A stretch of 64,000 nt of DNA from the NCBI RefSeq assembly GCF_004010195.1, contig NC_057718.1, forward strand, positions 95,916,354-95,980,353. Reading direction: 5' to 3'. Origin of the DNA: Chiloscyllium plagiosum (lineage: Eukaryota). Both the position numbers and the translations under genes were made by a program. The notes beneath the pieces are model-generated. The model saw only the letters and a list, made by a program, of their open reading frames with translations, made no database searches and was not told where the DNA came from. Positions 2,298 through 63,059 of the stretch are shown here, one piece after another (within the stretch, counting starts at the first letter, position 1; every line of letters starts with the position of its first letter).

Positions 2298-2340
2298 ATT
2301 AACCCAGCATCCATTGTATGTTGTTTTCATCTGATGTGAG

Positions 2341-2555
2341 CTGAAAATGTGTTGCTGGAAAAGCGCAGCAGGTCAGGCAGCATCCAAGGAGGAGAATCGA
2401 CGTTTCTGGCATGAGCCCTTCTTCAGGAATCATGAAGAAGGGCTTATGCCCGAAATGTCGATTCTCCTCCTTGGATGCTGCCTGACCTGCTGCGCTTTTC
2501 CAGCAACACATTTTCAGCTCTGATCTCCAGCATCTGCAGTCCTCACTTTCTCCTC
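2341..2555 (+). mobile_element. Penelope-derived fold-back mini-element, family A, with hammerhead cores
   Basis: Inverted repeat centred ~2428; 13-bp TSD catctgatgtgag at 2328-2340 and 2556-2568; minus-strand core CTGAAGA-A-GGGCTCATGCCA-GAAACGTC. Confidence 0.9.
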
Positions 2556-9719: not shown

Positions 9720-12700
9720 TGCCCAACTACTCATGCATCTGTCCAGACGCATCTTAAATGAATGTACCGTGCCTGCCTCTACCACCTCTGCTGGCAACGC
9801 GTTCCAAATGCCCACCACCCTCTGTGTGAAGTACTTGCTGCGTATATCCCCCTTAAACTTTCCACCTCTCACCTTGAAAGCGTGACCTCTCGTTATTGAA
9901 TCCTTCACCCTGGGAAAAAGCTTGTCTCTATCCACCCGGTCTATACCCTTCATGATTTTCTAAACCTCAATCAGGTCCCCCCTCAATCTCCTTTTTCCTA
10001 ATGAAAATAAATCTAACCTACTCAACCTCTCTTCATAGCTCGCACCTTCCATACCAGGCAACATCCTCGTAAACCTTCTCTGCAACNNNNNNNNNNNNNN
10101 NNNNNNNNNNNNNNNNNNNNNNNNNNNNNNNNNNNNNNNNNNNNNNNNNNNNNNNNNNNNNNNNNNNNNNNNNNNNNNNNNNNNNNNNNNNNNNNNNNNN
10201 NNNNNNNNNNNNNNNNNNNNNNNNNNNNNNNNNNNNNNNNNNNNNNNNNNNNNNNNNNNNNNNNNNNNNNNNNNNNNNNNNNNNNNNNNNNNNNNNNNNN
10301 NNNNNNNNNNNNNNNNNNNNNNNNNNNNNNNNNNNNNNNNNNNNNNNNNNNNNNNNNNNNNNNNNNNNNNNNNNNNNNNNNNNNNNNNNNNNNNNNNNNN
10401 NNNNNNNNNNNNNNNNNNNNNNNNNNNNNNNNNNNNNNNNNNNNNNNNNNNNNNNNNNNNNNNNNNNNNNNNNNNNNNNNNNNNNNNNNNNNNNNNNNNN
10501 NNNNNNNNNNNNNNNNNNNNNNNNNNNNNNNNNNNNNNNNNNNNNNNNNNNNNNNNNNNNNNNNNNNNNNNNNNNNNNNNNNNNNNNNNNNNNNNNNNNN
10601 NNNNNNNNNNNNNNNNNNNNNNNNNNNNNNNNNNNNNNNNNNNNNNNNNNNNNNNNNNNNNNNNNNNNNNNNNNNNNNNNNNNNNNNNNNNNNNNNNNNN
10701 NNNNNNNNNNNNNNNNNNNNNNNNNNNNNNNNNNNNNNNNNNNNNNNNNNNNNNNNNNNNNNNNNNNNNNNNNNNNNNNNNNNNNNNNNNNNNNNNNNNN
10801 NNNNNNNNNNNNNNNNNNNNNNNNNNNNNNNNNNNNNNNNNNNNNNNNNNNNNNNNNNNNNNNNNNNNNNNNNNNNNNNNNNNNNNNNNNNNNNNNNNNN
10901 NNNNNNNNNNNNNNNNNNNNNNNNNNNNNNNNNNNNNNNNNNNNNNNNNNNNNNNNNNNNNNNNNNNNNNNNNNNNNNNNNNNNNNNNNNNNNNNNNNNN
11001 NNNNNNNNNNNNNNNNNNNNNNNNNNNNNNNNNNNNACACCACTGGTCACCTTTCTCCATTTTGAGAAACTCCCTTCAACTACTACTCTCTGTCTCCTGT
11101 TGCTCAACCAGTTCTTTATCCACCTAGCTAGAACACCCTGCACATGTGACTTCACTTTGTCCATTAGTCTACAATGGGGAACCTTATCAAACACCTTACT
11201 AAAGTCCACGTATATGACATCAACAGCCCATCCTTCATCTATCAACTTGGTCACTTCCTCAAAGAACTCTATTAAGTTGGTAAGGCATGATCTCCCCTGC
11301 ACAAAACCATGTTGCCTATCACTGATAAGGCCATTCTTTTCTAAATCTAAATAGATCCTATCCCTCAGTACCTTCTCCAGCAACTTTCCCACCACTGACA
11401 ACAGGCTCACTGGTCTGTAGTTACCTGGAATATCCCTACTACCCTTCTTGTACAGGGGGACAACATGAGCAACCTTCCAGTCTCCTGGGGATTTGTCCAC
11501 CTTAATAACCTCTAGCCTACCCAACACATCTTCCCTACTTATGTCAACGTGATCCAGACTAATCAAACTTCTATCTCTAACCTCAAGATTCATCATGTTC
11601 CTCTTCTCAGTGAACACTGATGCAAAGTAATCATTCAGAATCTCACCCATTCTCTTAGGTTCGACACACGGCATTCCATTGTTATTCTTTAGTGGACCAA
11701 TCCTTTCTCTAGTTACCCACTTGCTTCTTGTATAAGAATAAAGTGCTTTGGGATTCTTCTTAATTCTGCTCGCTAAAGCTATTTCATGACCCCTTTTAGC
11801 CCCCTTGATTCTTCGTTTAAGACTTGTCCGACCCTTCTGATATTCCTCGGGGTCTGTTCTGTTCTTAGTTGCCTGGACCTTATGTATGCTTCCCTTTTCC
11901 TCCTGGCTATTTGTACAATTTCTCCTGTCATCCATGGTTCACGAATCTTGCCTTTCCTATCCTTTGCCTTCAACGGGACGTGCCTATCCTGCACTGCCGT
12001 TAACCTATCTTTGAAAGCCTCCCACATCTCAAATGTGGACTTCCCTTCAAATAGCTGTGTCCAATCCACATTTCCCAGCTCCTGCTTAATTTTGATATAA
12101 TTGGCCTTGGCCCAGTTTAGTACTCTTCCCTGAGGACCGTTCTCTTCTTTATCTACAAGTATTCTAAAATTTACAGAGTTGTGGTCACTGTTCCCAGAGA
12201 AATCCCCCACCACAACTTCTACCAACTGTCCTGGCTCGTTCCCCAGTACCAGGTCCAATATGGCCCCTTTCCTCATCGGACTGTTGACATACTGCTCGAG
12301 AAAACTCTCCTGGACGCTTCTTACAAATTCTACCCCATCCAGACCTCTGACGCTATGTGTATCCCAGTCGATGTTGGGAAAATTAAAATCTCTCATCACC
12401 ACTACCCTATTGCCTCTACATCTTTCTATAATCTATTTACCTATTTGTTCTTCTACCTCACACTCACTGTTGGGAGGCCTGTAATACAGCCCCAACAATG
12501 TAACTGCACCCTTCTTATTTCTCAGCTCCACCCATAATGCCTCACTACCCAAGACCACCATGGTGTGCTCCTTTAGCACAACCATGATATCGTCCCTGAC
12601 CAGCAATGCAACTCCTCCCCCCCCCTTTTTATTTCCCTCCCTGTCCTGTCTGAAGCATCTGTATCCTGGAACATTTAGTTGCCAATCATCACGCCCTTCC

Positions 12701-19418: not shown

Positions 19419-19509
19419 GTGTTTAGATCAGAGTGGTGCTGGAAAAGCACAGCAGGTCAGGCAGCATCCATTCGGGCAAAAGCCCTTCATCTGCAGTTCT
19501 CACTTTTGC
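19419..19509. mobile_element. Internally deleted family A Penelope mini-element
   Basis: Left arm fused to the 3' terminus catctgcagttctcactttt; 16-bp TSD caagtctgatcctcca at 19403-19418 and 19510-19525. Confidence 0.85.
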
Positions 19510-21187: not shown

Positions 21188-21710
21188 TTGTACATCCCAG
21201 CAAGGAAAATCCAAAACTAGAGGACATAGGCTTAGGGTGATTGGGAAAAGTCGTAAAAGGGACCGAAGGAACAACTTTATCACGCAGAGGGTGGTGCGTG
21301 TATGGAATGAGCTGCCAGAGGAAGCGGTGGAGGCTGGTACAGTTACAACATTTAAATGGCATCTGGATGGGTATATGAATAGGAGAGGTTTGGAGTTGTA
21401 CATCCCAGCAAGGAAAACTAGAGGACATAGGCTTAGGGTGATTGGGAAAAGTCATAAAAGGGACCGAAGGAACAACTTTTTCATGCAGAGGGTGGTGCGT
21501 GTATGGAATGAGCTGCCAGAGGAAGTGGTGGAGGCTGGTACAGTTACAACATTTAAATGGCATCTGGATGGGTATATGAATAGGAGAGGTTTGGAGGGAT
21601 ATGGGCCAAGTCCTGGCAAATGGGACTAGATTGATTTATGATATCTGGTCAACATGGATAAGTTGGACCAAAGGGTCTGTTTCCATGCGGTACATCTCTA
21701 TGACTCTAAG
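21188..21710 (+). mobile_element. CR1 3' fragment with ~205-bp tandem duplication
   Basis: 21188-21395 repeated at 21396-21596 (KTRGHRLRV...WNELPEE twice in ORF 21147-21629). Confidence 0.92.
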
Positions 21711-22737: not shown

Positions 22738-22788
22738 CAATTTCAAATAAACCTGTTGGACTATAACCTGGTGTTGTTTGATTTTTGA
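22738..22788 (+). mobile_element. Short family B Penelope mini-element remnant
   Basis: aataaacctgttggactataacctggtgttg; 11-bp flanking repeat ctatgtcaatt at 22727-22737 and 22789-22799. Confidence 0.75.
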
Positions 22789-23391
22789 CTATGTCAATTC
22801 GAATTAGCTGATCATGACTGAGGCAATGAAATAAGCATCTCCGTTTGAAAACTTACTAAAATCAGATTACGGTCAAAGGTAATAAATTGCCTTATGGAAT
22901 TGAATTTTCCTAGATGCCTTTGGATGCCAGACAAGTCAATGGGAGCAAATAGCTCTTTCTAACAGCTGATGGTGTTTTTTTTATTTCTGATGGTGGATGT
23001 TTACCCGCTAAACCACTGTGGGAATTCCGGGAGGGGATAGTCTTCATTATAACATTACAGCTGGCAGGAAGGTCAGAGTATTAACGAGACGGGAGAGATT
23101 GAAATGATTATTCATTTCTTCACACCAATTTACATGGAGGTGGTGAAGAATAAGTTAGGATTCGTTATTGTTTGCTGCTGCTGACTAGAAAGTGTTCCTT
23201 TTGGAGGTGAGAATCTCTTTGTTTTTCATTCATTATCAAACTCTCAGTTATGTTCCAGTTCATCACAAGGTTCCTTCAACACCTATATTTTTAACTTGTG
23301 GCATTGTGTTAGGAATTAGGGGTCCTCTTTAAATCTGTGCACTTTTAATATTCCATAATTTATGTTCCATAATAGAGAGGAGGCGGGGGGG

Positions 23392-30153: not shown

Positions 30154-30380
30154 AAAAGTAAAGAGCGACAGATGCTGGAAACCAGAGTTTAGATCAGAGT
30201 GGTGCTGGAAAAGCACATCAGGTCAGGCAGCATCCGAGGAGCAGGAAAATCAACGTTTCGGACAAAAGCCCTTCATCAGGAATAGAGCTCTATTCCTGAT
30301 GAAGGGCTTTTGCCCGAAGTGTTGATTTTCCTGCTCCTCGGATGCTGCCTGACCTGCTGTGCTTTTTCAGCACCACTCTC
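30154..30380 (-). mobile_element. Penelope-derived fold-back mini-element, family A
   Basis: Loopless palindrome centre ttcatcaggaatagag|ctctattcctgatgaa (30287/30288); 15-bp TSD atctccttatatggc at 30139-30153 and 30381-30395. Confidence 0.92.
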
Positions 30381-31608
30381 ATCTCCTTATATGGCTCAGT
30401 GTCAAATTTTGTTTTGGAATATTCTTCTGACTTGCCTTGTGTTAAAGATGCTCTGTAAAGACAAATGGTTGTCGTTGTTCTAGAACTTCAGGAAGACCAA
30501 TAGTGCATATTGAACTAACTGTGTGAAGAAGATGATGATGCAACCAACTTCCACAGCCCACCCTCAAAATCTCCAGCAACCACAGCTGCTGCCATAAAGC
30601 TATGCTTTAAAACAACATCTCAATTACTTTTGCAGTGTGGCCTGTTGACAAAGCTTAGGACAGATAATGGCATCTGTGAGAATTCACCGCAGCACTGAAC
30701 AACACGATTCCTATCAGAAGATGAAGGCTGGAAATTAAAAGAGGACAAATTTCTGAATGGTTGCTCCATTAGGAAAATTCAAAGGAGATTAACATTATCA
30801 CTTCAGCCCTGTCATTAGCAGTGTTCGTGCTTTCAAACATTTGGGCTTCAAAGCAGCCAACTATTTCTCCAGGGACATCCTGACGGTACCGTCCTCCAAC
30901 CACTTTCAAAAGGGGATCTTGCATAGATTGTCCTTTGCGCACTGTCTGTAATTGTCAGATTGAAAACACAACAAAATAAGAACAAAGATGCCTAGTACAA
31001 AGGCAAGCTAAAAGATGCTAGTAAAAGTACAGGATTCCATCATTTAAGATCATGTGGGAATTCAGTAGGATTCCCCCTTTAATCTTAAATCTGTACAACA
31101 TTTATTTGTAATTGTTGATGTATGGTTATAGTATGTGATTATATTAGTTCACTGCCTGAAATAGAACTTCTAAGGGATAGAATTACTTGGCCCTCATCAT
31201 CCTATTCCATGCTCTGCTGTGGAAATTCTACGTAATTGCACAGCGTTATAATTTTTACAATTGCTCTCCAAAGGTACTTAACCTCTTTGCTGAGAGTGCC
31301 TTTGTCAGCCTTGCTGGCATGCTCTACAATGAGATGTTGCATAAGACTGAGTCTCACTCGTACACGTACTCTCACTGCGAAAGAAAACATCGCCTTTATA
31401 ATTATTGCCTTTTTTTGAGAAAAAGACTTGATGAGAGAATGCTGGTCAGAGGCACCGTAGAAAGCATGCTGTATAGTTATCGAAAATATCTAGCTTAGTT
31501 TGTAGTAGGAGCTCTTTATCTGTTGGGAACAATGGAGACATTATTTTAATAATTCATTCATGGGATATGAGTGCCAGCATTTATTGCCCTTCCCTAATTA
31601 CCCAAAGG

Positions 31609-31740
31609 AGGAGAAAGTGAGGTCTGCAGATGCTGGAGATCAGAGCTGAAAATGTGTTGCTGGAAAAGTGCAGCAGGTCAGGCAGCATCCAAGGAACAGG
31701 AGAATCGACGTTTCGGGCATAAGCCCTTCTTCAGGAATCA
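31609..31740 (-). mobile_element. Single-arm family A Penelope mini-element
   Basis: 17-bp TSD ccctaattacccaaagg at 31592-31608 and 31741-31757. Confidence 0.92.
31705..31735 (-). ncRNA. Minimal type I hammerhead ribozyme core (intact)
   Basis: Minus strand c-CUGAAGA-A-GGGC-UUAU-GCCC-GAAA-CGUC-ga. Confidence 0.8.
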
Positions 31741-32154
31741 CCCTAATTACCCAAAGGGCAGTTAAGCGTCAACCACACTGCTATTGGTCTGGAGTCCCAT
31801 GTAAGCCAGACCAGATAAGGATGGCAATTTGCTCCCCTAAAGGACATTAGTGAACAAGATGGCTTTTTCCAACAGTGGATTCCTGGTCATCATGAGACTC
31901 ATAATGCCAGAATTTTATTGAATTCGATTTCCACCGTCTGCCGTGGTGGGATTTGAACCCAGGTCCCCATGAACGTTATCTGGATTAACAGTTCAATGAT
32001 AACACCAGGAGACCTTCACCTCTTCCCCCTAAATTATACAAAACCTTACATCTGTGACTCTTGCTCATTACATGCATTGCACTAATTCTGCTAACTGGGC
32101 AAAGATCGCTCAATACTCAGAGGTATGTTGAGACTAATTTGTTTTAGTTAACTT

Positions 32155-33309: not shown

Positions 33310-33435
33310 CCCAAAGAACTGCAGATGCTGGAAATCAGAAACAAAAACAAAAATTGCTGGAAAAACTCAGCAGGTCTGATAGCAGCTGTGGAGAGAAAAC
33401 AGAGTTAACGATTTGGGTGCATTGCCCCTTCAGTG
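33310..33435 (-). mobile_element. Old Penelope-derived tail (family C)
   Basis: actgcagatgctggaaatc...tgctggaaaaactcagcaggtctg...cagagttaacg, related to family A termini. Confidence 0.65.
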
Positions 33436-33504
33436 GTCCAGACATTGAGCCACATCAATCAGTAAAATGCCAGCTTTGAACCATTCTATCCTGCATTATA
33501 AAGT

Positions 33505-36422: not shown

Positions 36423-36480
36423 GTTGAAACTTTATTGCTGGAACAGCACAGCAGGTCAGGCAGCAGGTCAGGCAGCATCC
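36423..36480 (-). mobile_element. Collapsed family A Penelope remnant
   Basis: gctggaacagcacagcaggtcaggcagc...atcc; 13-bp flanking repeat atgaaagtagcca at 36410-36422 and 36481-36493. Confidence 0.8.
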
Positions 36481-42434: not shown

Positions 42435-42526
42435 CTGCTCCTCGGATGCTGCTGGAACTGCTGTGCTTTTGCAGCACCACTCTAATCTAGACTCTGGTTT
42501 CCAGCATCTTCTGTCCTTGATTTTAC
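42435..42526 (+). mobile_element. Family A Penelope mini-element 3' end
   Basis: 11-bp TSD agagaaaatca at 42424-42434 and 42527-42537. Confidence 0.8.
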
Positions 42527-42844: not shown

Positions 42845-43050
42845 TAACTGTGGATGTTGTAAATCAGGGACAAAAGTAGAAATTGCTGGAAACGTTCAGC
42901 AGGTCTGGCAGCATCTGTGGAGAGAAATCAGAGTCAATGTTTCAGGTCGACTGAGGGAGTGTTTTGAGGAAGAGTAATTTGACCTGAAACGTTAACTCTG
43001 ATTTCTCTCCACAGGTGCTGAGCTTTTCCAGCAATTTCGATTTTTGTCTT
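42845..43050. mobile_element. Old Penelope-derived fold-back element (family C)
   Basis: tgtggagagaaatcagagtcaatgtttcaggtc ... gacctgaaacgttaactctgatttctctccaca inverted arms with decayed hammerhead core. Confidence 0.8.
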
Positions 43051-45629: not shown

Positions 45630-46250
45630 GGGCAGCCATTACCTGCTGTATCCTGATTTGTGGCATCTGTTGCTCCTGAGTGGTCTCCTCTACATTGGAG
45701 AGACTGAATGCAGACTCAGGGACCAGTTCAGGGAACATCTATGATCCGCACGTTCCAACCAACCCCACCTTCCAGCTGCTAACCGTTTCAACTCCCCGTT
45801 CCACTCCCCCAACAACATGTCCATTCTGGGCCTCCTCCATCATCAACACAAGGCCACACTCAAGCTTGGAGAAAAACACCTCATCTTCCGCCTCGAAGGC
45901 TTGCGACCATATGGCCTCAACATAGAATTCACCAGCTTTCACATCTCCCCAACCCCCACCTCATCCCAGGCCTAGCCCTCCCTATCCATCCAACCCCCTT
46001 TACCTAGCCTTTCCTTTCTAACTACCCGCTTCACCCTTCCCACTGACCAATCACAGCCACCTCCTGCCTGCATCGACCTATCACCATCCCAGCTACCTAT
46101 TCCCCCAGCTCCACTCCCCACCCTCTGTTTATTTGGCAGCTGCCCCCTCCCCCTCCCTCAGTCCTGATGAAAGGTTCCGACCTGAAATGTTGACTCCCGT
46201 TCTCCTCTGATGCTGCTTGATCTGCTGTGCTGTTTCCAGCTCCACACTTT
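45630..46250 (+). mobile_element. Penelope-like element 3' fragment: GIY-YIG endonuclease remnant, 3' UTR and hammerhead
   Basis: GLLYIGETECRLRDQFREHL*...PAANRFNSPFHSPNNMSILGLLHH..KATLKLGEKHLIFRLEGLRPYGLNIEF; C-rich UTR; tail gatgctgcttgatctgctgtgctgtttccagc shared with family A. Confidence 0.9.
46160..46195 (+). ncRNA. Minimal type I hammerhead ribozyme motif in the Penelope 3' UTR
   Basis: AGUC-CUGAUGA-A-AGGU-UCCG-ACCU-GAAA-UGUU-GACU; stem I AGUC/GACU, stem II AGGU/ACCU; stem III probably CpG-decayed from CGUC or CGUU. Confidence 0.75.
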
Positions 46251-46287
46251 ATCAGCCATTACTGACCTGGTCAATTACTCCCACATG

Positions 46288-52885: not shown

Positions 52886-53013
52886 GTCACTGCAGACTCA
52901 GCCATCTGGAGGAATGTCTAGTACTGTCAGGATAAAGGTCCATCTCCCTCTCCATTCCGTTAATGTAAGTGCCAATATGCCACCCTCGCCTGAGTTTTGC
53001 TACTGTACCCACC

Positions 53014-53282
53014 TTCTAGATTAAAGTGGTGCTGGAAAAGCACAGCAGTTCAGGCAGCATCCGAGGAGCAGGAGAGTCGACGTTTCGGGCAAAAGCCCTT
53101 CATCAGGAATAGAATGCTTTACTCCTGATGAAGGGCTTTTGCCCGAAATGTTGATTTTCCTGCTCCTCGGAGCCCGAAATGTTGATTTTCCTGCTCCTCG
53201 GATGCTGCCTGAACTGCTGTGCTTTTCCAGCACCATTCTATTCTAGAACCTGGTTTCCAGCATCTGCAGTCATTGTTTTTAC
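53014..53282 (+). mobile_element. Penelope-derived fold-back mini-element, family A
   Basis: Inverted arms around 53110-53122; 14-bp TSD ctactgtacccacc at 53000-53013 and 53283-53296; ~31-bp internal tandem duplication at 53141-53201. Confidence 0.92.
53077..53107 (-). ncRNA. Minimal type I hammerhead ribozyme core (intact)
   Basis: Minus strand c-CUGAUGA-A-GGGC-UUUU-GCCC-GAAA-CGUC-ga. Confidence 0.82.
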
Positions 53283-53743
53283 CTACTGTACCCACCACCT
53301 ATTGCTGAGAATCCCTGGCACCACCAATCCTGCACGCACTCTGTGCTGCCTCCTCACTCACTCTGGAACCACCTCTCCACGTGCACCAAAAGTAACTGCT
53401 GTGCCAAACTCCCTTCCCCTTACATCTCTCATAATAGTTGCTGCCCTCTCTCTCTCAGTCCAGGAGGGGAGTAGTCCTGAGTAAGACAGATAGACTGGGC
53501 AGATGGTGTACTGCCTGACATTCAGTTCCTCACCCGTTATGAGGAGAGTATCTTGACTCCAATAGCCCAGAGTGGACTGACTGACCATTTCAAAGCCCCT
53601 GGACTGGTATCGGAGGCTGCCCTTGATTTCCTGTGTCAGGACCACCTGAGCAAAGCCATTCGCCCTTGACCTAACTGAGGCTTGCTGATGACCATGACAA
53701 CCTTCCTGACTTGGCAAGACAGGAGTATGATGAGCCAAGAGCA

Positions 53744-53939
53744 TGCTGCTGGAAAAGCACAGCAGGTCAGGCAACATCCGAGAAGCAGGAGAGTCAATGT
53801 TTCAGGCAAAAGTCCTTCATCAAGGCTTATGCCCGAAACGTTGATTCTCCTGCTCCTCGGATGCTGCCTGACCTGCTGTGCTTTTCCAGCACCACATCCT
53901 CGACTTTGATCTCCAGCATCTGCAGTTCTCATTTTCTCC
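53744..53939 (+). mobile_element. Family A fold-back mini-element with centre deleted
   Basis: gctggaaaagcacagcaggtcaggca...tgcctgacctgctgtgcttttccagc arms; junction ccttcatca|aggcttatgcccgaaa. Confidence 0.88.
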
Positions 53940-54164
53940 AAAGGGCTCACTACATCAAAAGGTTTCTCCTCATGTTTGCATCTGGATCTTTGAACCAGAA
54001 ATCTATGTCCTCTGCTTCCTGACCATTGCTCCAATGAAAACTCTTTCCCTCTTATCTACCTTGTCCATTTTTAAGACAACCCTGAGCACTCAACAGCTTG
54101 AACTCAGTTCGTGTTATGTGCTTGGCTGTCTAAAATGGGTAAATAGACAATACTACACACCACC

Positions 54165-56719: not shown

Positions 56720-56996
56720 TACAAAATTAAAAATCACACAACACCAGGTTATAGTCCAACAAGTTTAATTGGAAGCACTAGCTTTCGGAACGCTGCTCCT
56801 ACATCAGGTGGTTGTCGAGTATAAGATTGTAAGACGCGGAATTTATAGCAAAAGTTTTCAGTGTGATCTACCACCTGATGAAGGAGCAGCATTCCGAAAG
56901 CTAGTGCTTCCAATTAAACCTGGTGGACTAAAACCCTGGTGTTGTGGGATTTTTAAATTTGTACGCTCCAACCCAACACTGGCGTCTCCAAATCAT
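56720..56996 (+). mobile_element. Penelope-derived fold-back mini-element, family B
   Basis: Arms aaaaatcacacaacaccagg...catcaggtgg / ccacctgatga...cctggtgttgtgggattttt; imperfect flanking repeat aacaactgatt / aacaaactggtt. Confidence 0.88.
56872..56906 (+). ncRNA. Minimal type I hammerhead ribozyme core (family B, intact)
   Basis: CAC-CUGAUGA-A-GGAG-CAGCA-UUCC-GAAA-GCUA-GUG; stem I CAC/GUG, palindromic AGCU stem III, CUA cleavage triplet. Confidence 0.82.
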
Positions 56997-57960: not shown

Positions 57961-58293
57961 TCCATCATTTGATATGATCATGGCTAATCTTGCCTTAGCC
58001 TCAACTCCACTCTCCTGTCCACGCCCTATAACCCTCCGACCCAATACAAAAATCTCTCTCCTCTTAGATTAATTCAATGTCACAGCAACCACCGCACTCT
58101 TCTCCTGTTCCCTAGATGCTGCCTGACCTGCTGCGCTTTTCCAGCAACACATTTCCATCATTTGATATGATCATGGCTAATCTTGCCTTCGCCTCAACTC
58201 CACTCTCCTGTCCACGCCCTATAACCCTCCGACCCAATACAAAAATCTCTCTCCTCTTAGATTAATTCAATGTCACAGCAACCACCGCACTCT
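57961..58293 (+). repeat. 140-bp direct duplication enclosing a 53-bp family A Penelope fragment
   Basis: 57961-58100 matches 58154-58293 (1 mismatch); insert 58101-58153 tctcctgttccctagatgctgcctgacctgctgcgcttttccagcaacaca. Confidence 0.92.
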
Positions 58294-59185: not shown

Positions 59186-59519
59186 CTGCAAAGAGAAAGC
59201 TAAATAACTAAAAATGTTATTTTGCATTTTAAGTTTCTGACTGTTTCAATCCTGGGGTAATCCCAGGAACAATGGTTGCTTCCTCCAAATGTCTATAGGC
59301 AGAATTTTGATGTCAATATTGCATTATTGATGGATGGCTCATTAAGGGCTTGATTTTAACTGAGTTGAAAATCACATATAACAGGACTTCAATTGGCCAA
59401 ATCAGTTACACACTCAGGGAGCAATGAAGACAGTTAACCTGACTACAACTGGTATCTCTACCATCTAGAAGGGCAAGGGCAGCAGATACATGGGAACAGA
59501 ATCACCTTCAGGACAATCA

Positions 59520-59636
59520 GCTGATGAAGGTGAGGTGCTCCGAAAGCTAATACTTCCAATTAAACCTGTTGGACTGTAACCTGGTGTTGTGTGATTTTTG
59601 TACTTCCCAGTCCAACACCAGCATCTCCAAATCATG
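59520..59636 (+). mobile_element. Single-arm family B Penelope mini-element
   Basis: ctgatgaaggtgaggtgctccgaaagcta...aaacctgttggactgtaacctggtgttgtgtg...ccaaatcat. Confidence 0.8.
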
Positions 59637-59915
59637 ACCTTTCAAGACACCCACCATACTGATTTGGGATTGAAGTTCCTTCACTGTTGCTGGGTTAAAC
59701 CTTGGAATTCCTTCCCAAATGGCATCATGGATCAAATGGATTCCAATGGTTCAAGAAGGTGACTTACCATCACCTTCTCAACGGTATGTAGGGATGGACT
59801 GGCCTAGCCAGTAATACCTATGTCCAGTAAATTATTTTTTTAAAAAAGTGATAAATCTGGGAGCATTGTATAATCTTTCCCGATCAGAACAATGGTATTT
59901 AGCTGAGCTGTTTGT

Positions 59916-60148
59916 CTCTAGCTTTCGGAGCACTGCTCCTTCATCAGGTGGTAGTGGAGAACATGATGTAAGGCACCGAATTCATAGCAAAAGTTTACAG
60001 TGTACATCACACTGTAAGCTTTTGCTATAAATTCTGCGTCTTACAAACTTATACTCCAGAACCACCTGATGAAGGACCAGCGCTCCAAAAGCTAGTGTTT
60101 CCAAATAAACCTGGACTATAACCTGGTATTGTGTGATTTTTAACTTTG
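59916..60148 (+). mobile_element. Family B fold-back mini-element
   Basis: Inverted repeat centred ~60005 (atagcaaaagtttacagtgt / acactgtaagcttttgctat); intact minus-strand core at 59916-59950; plus-strand core has GAAA changed to AAAA. Confidence 0.88.
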
Positions 60149-60617: not shown

Positions 60618-60755
60618 GTTGAACTTCCTGATGAAGTGCTTTTGCCCGAAATGTTGATTCTCCTGCTCCTCGGATGCTGCCTGACCAGCTGTGTTTTTCT
60701 AGCATCACACTCTTTGACTCTGATCTCCAGCATCTGCAGTCCTCACTTTCTCCAA
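60618..60755 (+). mobile_element. Single-arm family A Penelope mini-element
   Basis: cctgatgaagtgcttttgcccgaaatgttga...; 10-bp TSD atttgtctca at 60608-60617 and 60756-60765. Confidence 0.88.
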
Positions 60756-61599: not shown

Positions 61600-61803
61600 G
61601 AGAAAGTGAGGACTGCAGATGCTGGAGATCAGAGCTGAAAAATGTGTTGCTGGAAAAGCGCAGCAAGTCAGGCATCCAAGGAGTAGGAGAATCGACGCTT
61701 CGGGCATAAGCCCTGAAGAAGGGCTTATGCCCGAAACGTTGATTCTCCTGCTCCTTGGATGCTGCCTGACCTGCTGCGCTTTTCCAGCAACACATTTTTC
61801 AGT
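61600..61803 (-). mobile_element. Family A fold-back mini-element inserted in a family B SINE (~61300-61840)
   Basis: 13-bp TSD tctagagtactag at 61587-61599 and 61804-61816; plus-strand core CTGAAGA-A-GGGCTTATGCCC-GAAACGTT at 61713-61740. Confidence 0.92.
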
Positions 61804-62859: not shown

Positions 62860-63059
62860 TGGGGTGCTGGAAAAGCACAGCAGGTCAGGCAGCATCCAAG
62901 GAGGAGGAAAATTGACATTTTGGGTAAGAGCCCTTCATCAGGAAAGGGCTCAGGGCCAAAACGTCGATTCTCCTGCTCCTCGGATGCTGCCTGGCCTTCT
63001 GTGCTTTTCCAGAACCACACTCACGACTGTATCCAGCATCTGCAATCCTCACTTTCTCC
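62860..63059 (+). mobile_element. Family A fold-back mini-element
   Basis: 12-bp TSD tacaatccccag at 62848-62859 and 63060-63071; inverted arms with truncated centre. Confidence 0.9.

Follow-up and report, generated by a model that had tools for sequence, protein, structure and literature searches.

Minimal type I hammerhead cores in short fold-back and solo insertions, probably of Penelope-like origin, in a 64-kb window of Chiloscyllium plagiosum DNA

Two minimal hammerhead cores lie on the minus strand of a 64,000-nucleotide stretch of Chiloscyllium plagiosum DNA (the window). It is very probable that they are minimal type I hammerheads carried by short, target-site-duplicated insertions, likely derived from the terminal repeat (pLTR) of a Penelope-like element (PLE), and that they are likely inert passengers decaying neutrally. 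Both motifs likely do not cut host RNA. This explanation is supported by target-site duplications at 11 of 14 insertions, a single tailed arm in six of six two-armed elements, a truncated PLE copy (C1), and decay of the cores equal to that of their flanks.

Both cores read as type I, with a C3-A9 box, one extra A, a 4-bp stem II (GGGC/GCCC), GAA, an A15.1-C-G-U16.1 palindrome, and C17.

53079..53106, minus strand: minimal type I hammerhead core, 28 nt (CUGAUGA, extra A, GGGC-UUUU-GCCC, GAA, ACGU, C17)
31707..31734, minus strand: minimal hammerhead core, 28 nt (CUGAAGA, extra A, GGGC-UUAU-GCCC, GAA, ACGU, C17)

The core strings reported by the first-pass annotation are both present on the minus strand exactly as given. 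Its ranges (53077-53107 and 31705-31735) do contain the cores, but overshoot them by 2 nt on the low-coordinate side and by 1 nt on the other. The predicted scissile bond of the 53079 core lies between 53079 and 53078. The catalytic boxes CUGANGA and GAAA...UH are present in both cores, as is the palindrome ACGU at 15.2/16.2 without a stem III loop. Stem I, a required helix, is weak in both: 2 bp, a mismatch, and 1 bp at 53079, and GAUUC/GAUUC (2 bp, a central U.U mismatch, and 2 bp) at 31707. Two further family cores (30252-30279, minus, and 61713-61740, plus) retain the box, stem II, GAAA, and ACGU, but carry U17; 53079 and 31707 are the only family cores in the window to combine a Watson-Crick stem II, C17, and an upstream stem I strand.

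The pattern CTGANGAN{6,16}GAAACGTH matches five times in the window versus 0.00 times in 100 shuffles, and a wider pattern, with either palindrome allowed, eight times versus 0.05 in shuffles. When the copies are aligned, the G10.1-C11.1 pair is G-C in 10 of the 13 rows with letters, and the extra base after position 9 is present. Two contiguous helix I pairs are kept in 9/9 and 9/10 rows, with a mismatch interrupting their extension, and are weakest at 53079. In helix II, two of six pairs are changed on both sides, a count as high as that reached by 20 of 500 shuffles, and both changes come from the single C1 row. A covariance-model check suggested earlier gave no confirmation, as no hammerhead family was among the 20 Rfam matches at E up to 5, which is plausible for a core without stem III. 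Rfam matches to microRNA precursors were rejected; they fall below their own cut-offs and reflect the fold-back hairpins. Exact matches to the motif numbered zero in metagenome, viral, and prokaryote-genome collections.

The cores belong to a family represented by 12 insertions with 18 arms; copy number and junction statistics refer to the 64-kb window only.

53014..53282, both strands: E5, fold-back insertion of 269 bp, with a tail-less arm (53017-53113, sense minus) head to head with a tailed arm (53117-53280, sense plus)
53000..53013 (left) and 53283-53296 (right), plus strand: 14-bp target-site duplication of E5
53125..53152, plus strand: decayed partner core of E5, with palindrome AUGU and U17
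53141-53171/53172-53202: 31-nt tandem duplication in the tailed arm of E5, after the partner core
31609..31740, minus strand: E4, solo tailed insertion of 132 bp, inside another dispersed repeat
31592-31608 and 31741-31757: 17-bp target-site duplication of E4
2339..2555, both strands: E1, fold-back with a 3-nt deletion common to both arms
19419..19509, both strands: E2, collapsed fold-back with a 16-bp duplication
30154..30380, both strands: E3, fold-back with a 15-bp duplication and cores at 30252-30279 (minus) and 30296-30323 (plus)
53730..53945, both strands: E6, fold-back; a duplication was looked for and none was found
60618..60753, plus strand: E9, solo tailed insertion with a decayed core at 60628-60655
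61600..61803, both strands: E7, fold-back with a 13-bp duplication; core 61713-61740 (plus) intact with U17, its stem I strand lost at the junction
62860..63059, both strands: E8, fold-back with a 12-bp duplication and decayed cores
42435..42524, plus strand: E10, shorter stub without a hammerhead
58100-58165, plus strand: E11, stub similar to E10
36425-36465, minus strand: E12, stub similar to E10

The first-pass annotation had reasoned from two cores in a fold-back element. This is correct for 53079, which sits in E5, but not for 31707; because the latter lies in a solo insertion, the fold-back argument is valid for one core only.

Target-site duplications of 10-17 bp are found at 11 of the 14 insertions examined, two of the 14 being from related families; none is present at E6 or at a 42.9-kb fold-back of a related family, and that of E11 is unconvincing. 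Every two-armed element (6/6) has exactly one tailed arm, reaching +123 to +125 from C3, the other arm ending at +78 to +90. The fold-back apices lie at or inside the motif in all six, with a different junction in every fold-back, and motif-bearing arms start about -10 to +17 of C3, with E4 beginning 6 nt upstream. Tandem same-strand units are absent from the window, every copy being solo or inverted. This architecture resembles the insertion unit of endonuclease-bearing (EN+) PLEs, described as a 5'-truncated pLTR with an adjacent inverted copy and a 30-40 bp tail at one end (Arkhipova 2013, PMC3846280; Craig 2021, PMC8557442). Head-to-head arms, palindromic or microhomologous junctions, a tail on one arm, and a target-site duplication are shared. 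In contrast to those units, the ones in the window are only about 130-270 bp long and without a coding region, and their duplications of 10-17 bp compare with the 8-10 bp quoted for rotifer copies.

Several individual copies have features of their own. E2 (19419-19509) collapsed by internal deletions, apparently at CATC microhomology, and retained its 16-bp duplication. In E6 one arm has a stem II loop of the UUUU type and the other one of the UUAU type, which could reflect two templates or a single mutation. Two independent insertions of one subfamily (31740, E4; 2432, E1-left) start at -6 from C3, one base beyond the 5-nt stem I strand. Private variants common to both arms are the 3-nt deletion of E1 and an A for C in E5, the A for C being found also in E10.

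Two other minimal-hammerhead families, missed by the first-pass annotation, are present in the window.

56720-56963, 59512-59638, 59918-60148, and 22741-22794: second family, with stem II start GGAGC, palindrome AGCU, and A17; also fold-backs
56875 (plus), 59521 (plus), and 59919 (minus): second-family cores
42850-43045 and 33310-33440: third family, a more degraded relative of C1, with stem II side ACCU

At 42.9 kb the third family forms a fold-back whose arms are separated at the apex by some 30 nt of unrelated spacer.

The family's own coding region is absent from the window, and its link to PLEs goes via the sister copy C1.

45643..46252, plus strand: C1, 5'-truncated PLE copy with a 10-bp target-site duplication
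45682-45939, plus strand: broken C terminus of a GIY-YIG endonuclease in C1
46164-46191, plus strand: minimal hammerhead of C1, with a perfect 4-bp stem I and a decayed palindrome

C1 runs from the GIY-YIG remnant through a C-rich UTR to the hammerhead, 225 nt downstream of the remnant, and then to a segment homologous to the family, with 72-83% identity to its arms over 64-91 nt. The C1 frame is 64% identical to a relative, P0002 (E 3.8e-25), which is above the Pfam GIY-YIG cut-off; the C1 frame by itself reaches only E 0.18. Five of six P0002 relatives longer than 700 aa match both reverse transcriptase (RT) and GIY-YIG, and one aligns to the C1 frame at E 2e-11. A metagenome scan with the endonuclease alignment gave 285 pattern matches and no confirmed one. 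Since C1 joins a GIY-YIG remnant to a homologous motif, the motif is tied to PLEs. The Penelope association proposed earlier is thereby upheld, the extra base and the palindromic stem III being published hallmarks as well. A C-X4-C-X2-C linker precedes the endonuclease in nine of nine relatives checked, C1 itself beginning after the linker. A CX2-5CxxC linker is given as a mark of the Neptune/Nematis type (PMC8557442), and the sequences of these relatives point to that type rather than Poseidon as the putative clade.

Alternatively, the short units could form a SINE- or retrozyme-like non-autonomous family with its own transcription and copying, and not be truncated by-products of full-length PLE RNA. 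All motif-bearing arms do start within about -10 to +17 of C3 (E4 and E1-left both at -6), only one window copy, C1, reaches into coding sequence, and PLE-derived retrozymes have been described (bioRxiv 10.64898/2026.07.22.740005). The non-LTR retrozymes of that preprint are likewise non-coding, pLTR-related, and equipped with a type I hammerhead. However, they are defined as same-strand tandem repeats of at least two consecutive units, and the window holds no such array, its copies being dispersed as solo or inverted units that fall outside this definition. Junctions also differ between all fold-backs, and in C1 the motif is joined to a coding region. We regard this origin as unlikely.

Under the preferred explanation, by-products of PLE insertion, a GIY-YIG endonuclease would nick both DNA strands 10-17 bp apart. 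Reverse transcriptase would then copy uncleaved element RNA, beginning at two internal sites some 90 and 125 nt 3' of C3 and halting near the 5' edge of the hammerhead. The product would be a solo tailed stub in cases such as 31609-31740 or, as at 53014-53282, two arms joined head to head, of which one is tailed. Two reverse-transcription start sites in the green anole Poseidon element PAc account for its tailed and tail-less ends (Frangieh 2024, PMC11167929). The second arm could have come from either a second RNA or snap-back; the 3-nt deletion shared by the arms of E1 fits one donor locus or one template.

That the templates were uncleaved is suggested by the arms themselves. Among the 18 arms, 14 span the scissile bond, one has it deleted internally, and three start beyond it, at +30, +35, and +47. 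None of the 18 starts at the cleavage site (+28). Because most arms span the bond and none begins at the cut, we infer that the copied RNAs were uncleaved at the predicted site. By analogy, this agrees with the anole element, for which uncleaved RNA is reported as the main substrate and RNA-seq reads ending at the site as absent (PMC11167929). PAc likewise has a hammerhead in its pLTR, two internal RT starts, and an uncleaved RNA template; it differs in that the relatives of the window remnant carry the C-X4-C-X2-C linker, and in that the present family is known from sequence alone.

These observations also bear on a different role, in which the hammerhead would be an uncleaved template-pairing or stop signal: two RNAs would pair via ACGU and stem I, a dimeric PLE protein would copy one from each staggered nick, and the cDNAs would join at the hammerhead. 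Apices at or within the motif in six of six two-armed elements, uncleaved templates, and a tail on one arm are as expected, and the anole protein, a predicted dimer, nicks and extends both strands (PMC11167929). On the other hand, Naiad PLEs are described as forming inverted copies without canonical hammerheads (PMC8557442), the cores in fold-backs of the second family are about 65 and 118 nt apart, and private variants common to both arms fit snap-back on one template as well. Moreover, catalytic hammerhead mutants left in vitro insertion unchanged, although these mutants address catalysis and not pairing (PMC11167929). Such a role seems to us quite unlikely. If true, the palindrome, the placing of fold-back apices at the motif, and the presence of one tail only would all follow from one mechanism, and the purpose of PLE hammerheads would be known.

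The cores are no better conserved than their flanks. We compared 13 arms with a subfamily majority-rule reference, leaving out E8-right and C1, and excluded position 17 from the CpG test because U17 may be native. Non-CpG differences amount to 9/282 in the motif versus 19/540 downstream (P = 1.0; 13 arms), and CpG differences to 9/52 versus 3/31 (P = 0.52; 13 arms). The box, stem II, GAAA, and ACGU are all kept in 4 of the 10 arms that cover the whole core, with a neutral expectation of 0.35 per arm (P = 0.48 for four or more). As this matches neutral decay, the intact cores are what young neutral copies give. By this test, which is small and blind to selection on a single copy, the cores decay at the rate of the flanking element DNA.

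Folding was assessed by nearest-neighbour prediction, which takes no account of Mg2+, tertiary contacts, or proteins and had no calibrating control. Whichever strand of E5 is transcribed, the antisense arm emerges before the sense arm, and the 241-nt minus-strand RNA is predicted to form one hairpin of -172.1 kcal/mol (z -23.4). In this RNA, and also in one ending just past the core, the predicted probability of the 53079 stem II is 0.0000 and that of an unpaired catalytic box 0.000. E1 and E3 give a similar picture, with stem II missing from the predicted folds of their minus-strand cores. For the 53079 core, the prediction is a long hairpin in which the upstream antisense arm of the same element sequesters it. 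In contrast, stem II of the 31707 core has a predicted probability of 0.99, and a 48-nt piece with this core is predicted to fold stems I and II and leave the palindrome open. For these reasons only the 31707 copy is a serious candidate. Of all the copies it alone is predicted to pre-fold for dimerisation; it has no free same-strand partner in the window, so that its partner would have to come from another transcript.

In a double hammerhead, stem I and stem III are both intermolecular. Forced dimers have energies of -17.5 kcal/mol for 31707 twice (versus -23.0 for two monomers), -13.2 for the mixed 53079/31707 dimer (versus -22.9), and -8.9 for 53079 twice (versus about -23), all uncalibrated. 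These values are weak evidence since Mg2+ and tertiary contacts are ignored and an active-dimer control is absent. The prediction of the first-pass annotation that such cores cleave only as dimers is the published behaviour of the minimal hammerhead class, with low in vitro rates even as dimers (PMC4209133), and an anole PLE motif is reported to be cleaved only with the element's protein (PMC11167929). By analogy with this class, full-length tandem elements may use the motif as a ribozyme that works slowly and with help from dimerisation or a protein.

The window is repeat-rich animal DNA, 31% of it repeated within the window, with LINE reverse-transcriptase fragments. Two further features fall within LINE sequence: a run of 950 N (10087-11036) in a LINE copy whose long open frames lie at 11.0-12.4 kb, and a 201-bp tandem duplication (21213-21675) inside a LINE 3' fragment. 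A Pfam search covered 291 ORFs, namely 148 of the 173 repeat-poor ORFs of at least 60 aa (the other 25 being located at 9.5-19.7 kb and for the most part within LINE copies) and 143 ORFs of 42-59 aa starting at 19 kb. None of them had a host-gene domain that reached its cut-off, only LINE RT/endonuclease matches passing. An NDUF_B7 match was rejected at 17.5 bits versus a cut-off of 26. As no host exon was found, a long pre-mRNA is without support; the window may still be intronic, since short or domain-less exons would escape the Pfam search.

The first-pass annotation had gone further and suggested intronic self-cleavage, in which intact cores in a long pre-mRNA would form dimers, either in trans or in cis across 21 kb, and cut the intron. 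The two cores do share a strand and are both intact, the 31707 copy, folded by itself, is predicted to form stems I and II with an open palindrome, and with 12 insertions in 64 kb the family is dense, so trans partners may be many. If true, a very dense repeat family could cut introns genome-wide. Nevertheless, locking is predicted for the 53079 core and also for the minus-strand E1 and E3 cores, and the forced double-hammerhead energies, though uncalibrated, lie above those of two monomers. The cores show no selection, the 291 ORFs gave no host-gene domain, published dimers cleave poorly (PMC4209133), and read ends at the anole site are reported as absent from RNA-seq (PMC11167929). The suggestion is not supported, and we consider such cleavage highly improbable.

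The cores closely resemble the minimal hammerheads of PLEs described by Cervera and de la Pena (2014, PMC4209133), with the same CUGANGA box, one extra base before stem II, G10.1-C11.1, GAAA, palindromic 15.2/16.2 without loop III, and short helix I. Those motifs, too, are mostly single and sometimes occur as opposite-strand pairs, and number thousands per genome in coelacanth and frog. Within the range given there, the 4-bp stem II is at the short end, and helix I has only two contiguous pairs, 2-bp cases existing in the published alignment (range 2-6 bp). Every feature flagged by the first-pass annotation, opposite-strand pairs included, is already in that paper. A full-text literature search gave no description for sharks, one supplement file of PMC4209133 contains no shark or chimaera term, and the tables of the bioRxiv preprint may hold its one cartilaginous-fish family.

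The finding is ordinary, adding a further family with a motif that has been known since 2014, and the sole gap that it concerns is taxonomic (sharks). Abundant fold-back junctions make the role of the PLE hammerhead testable from genome data.
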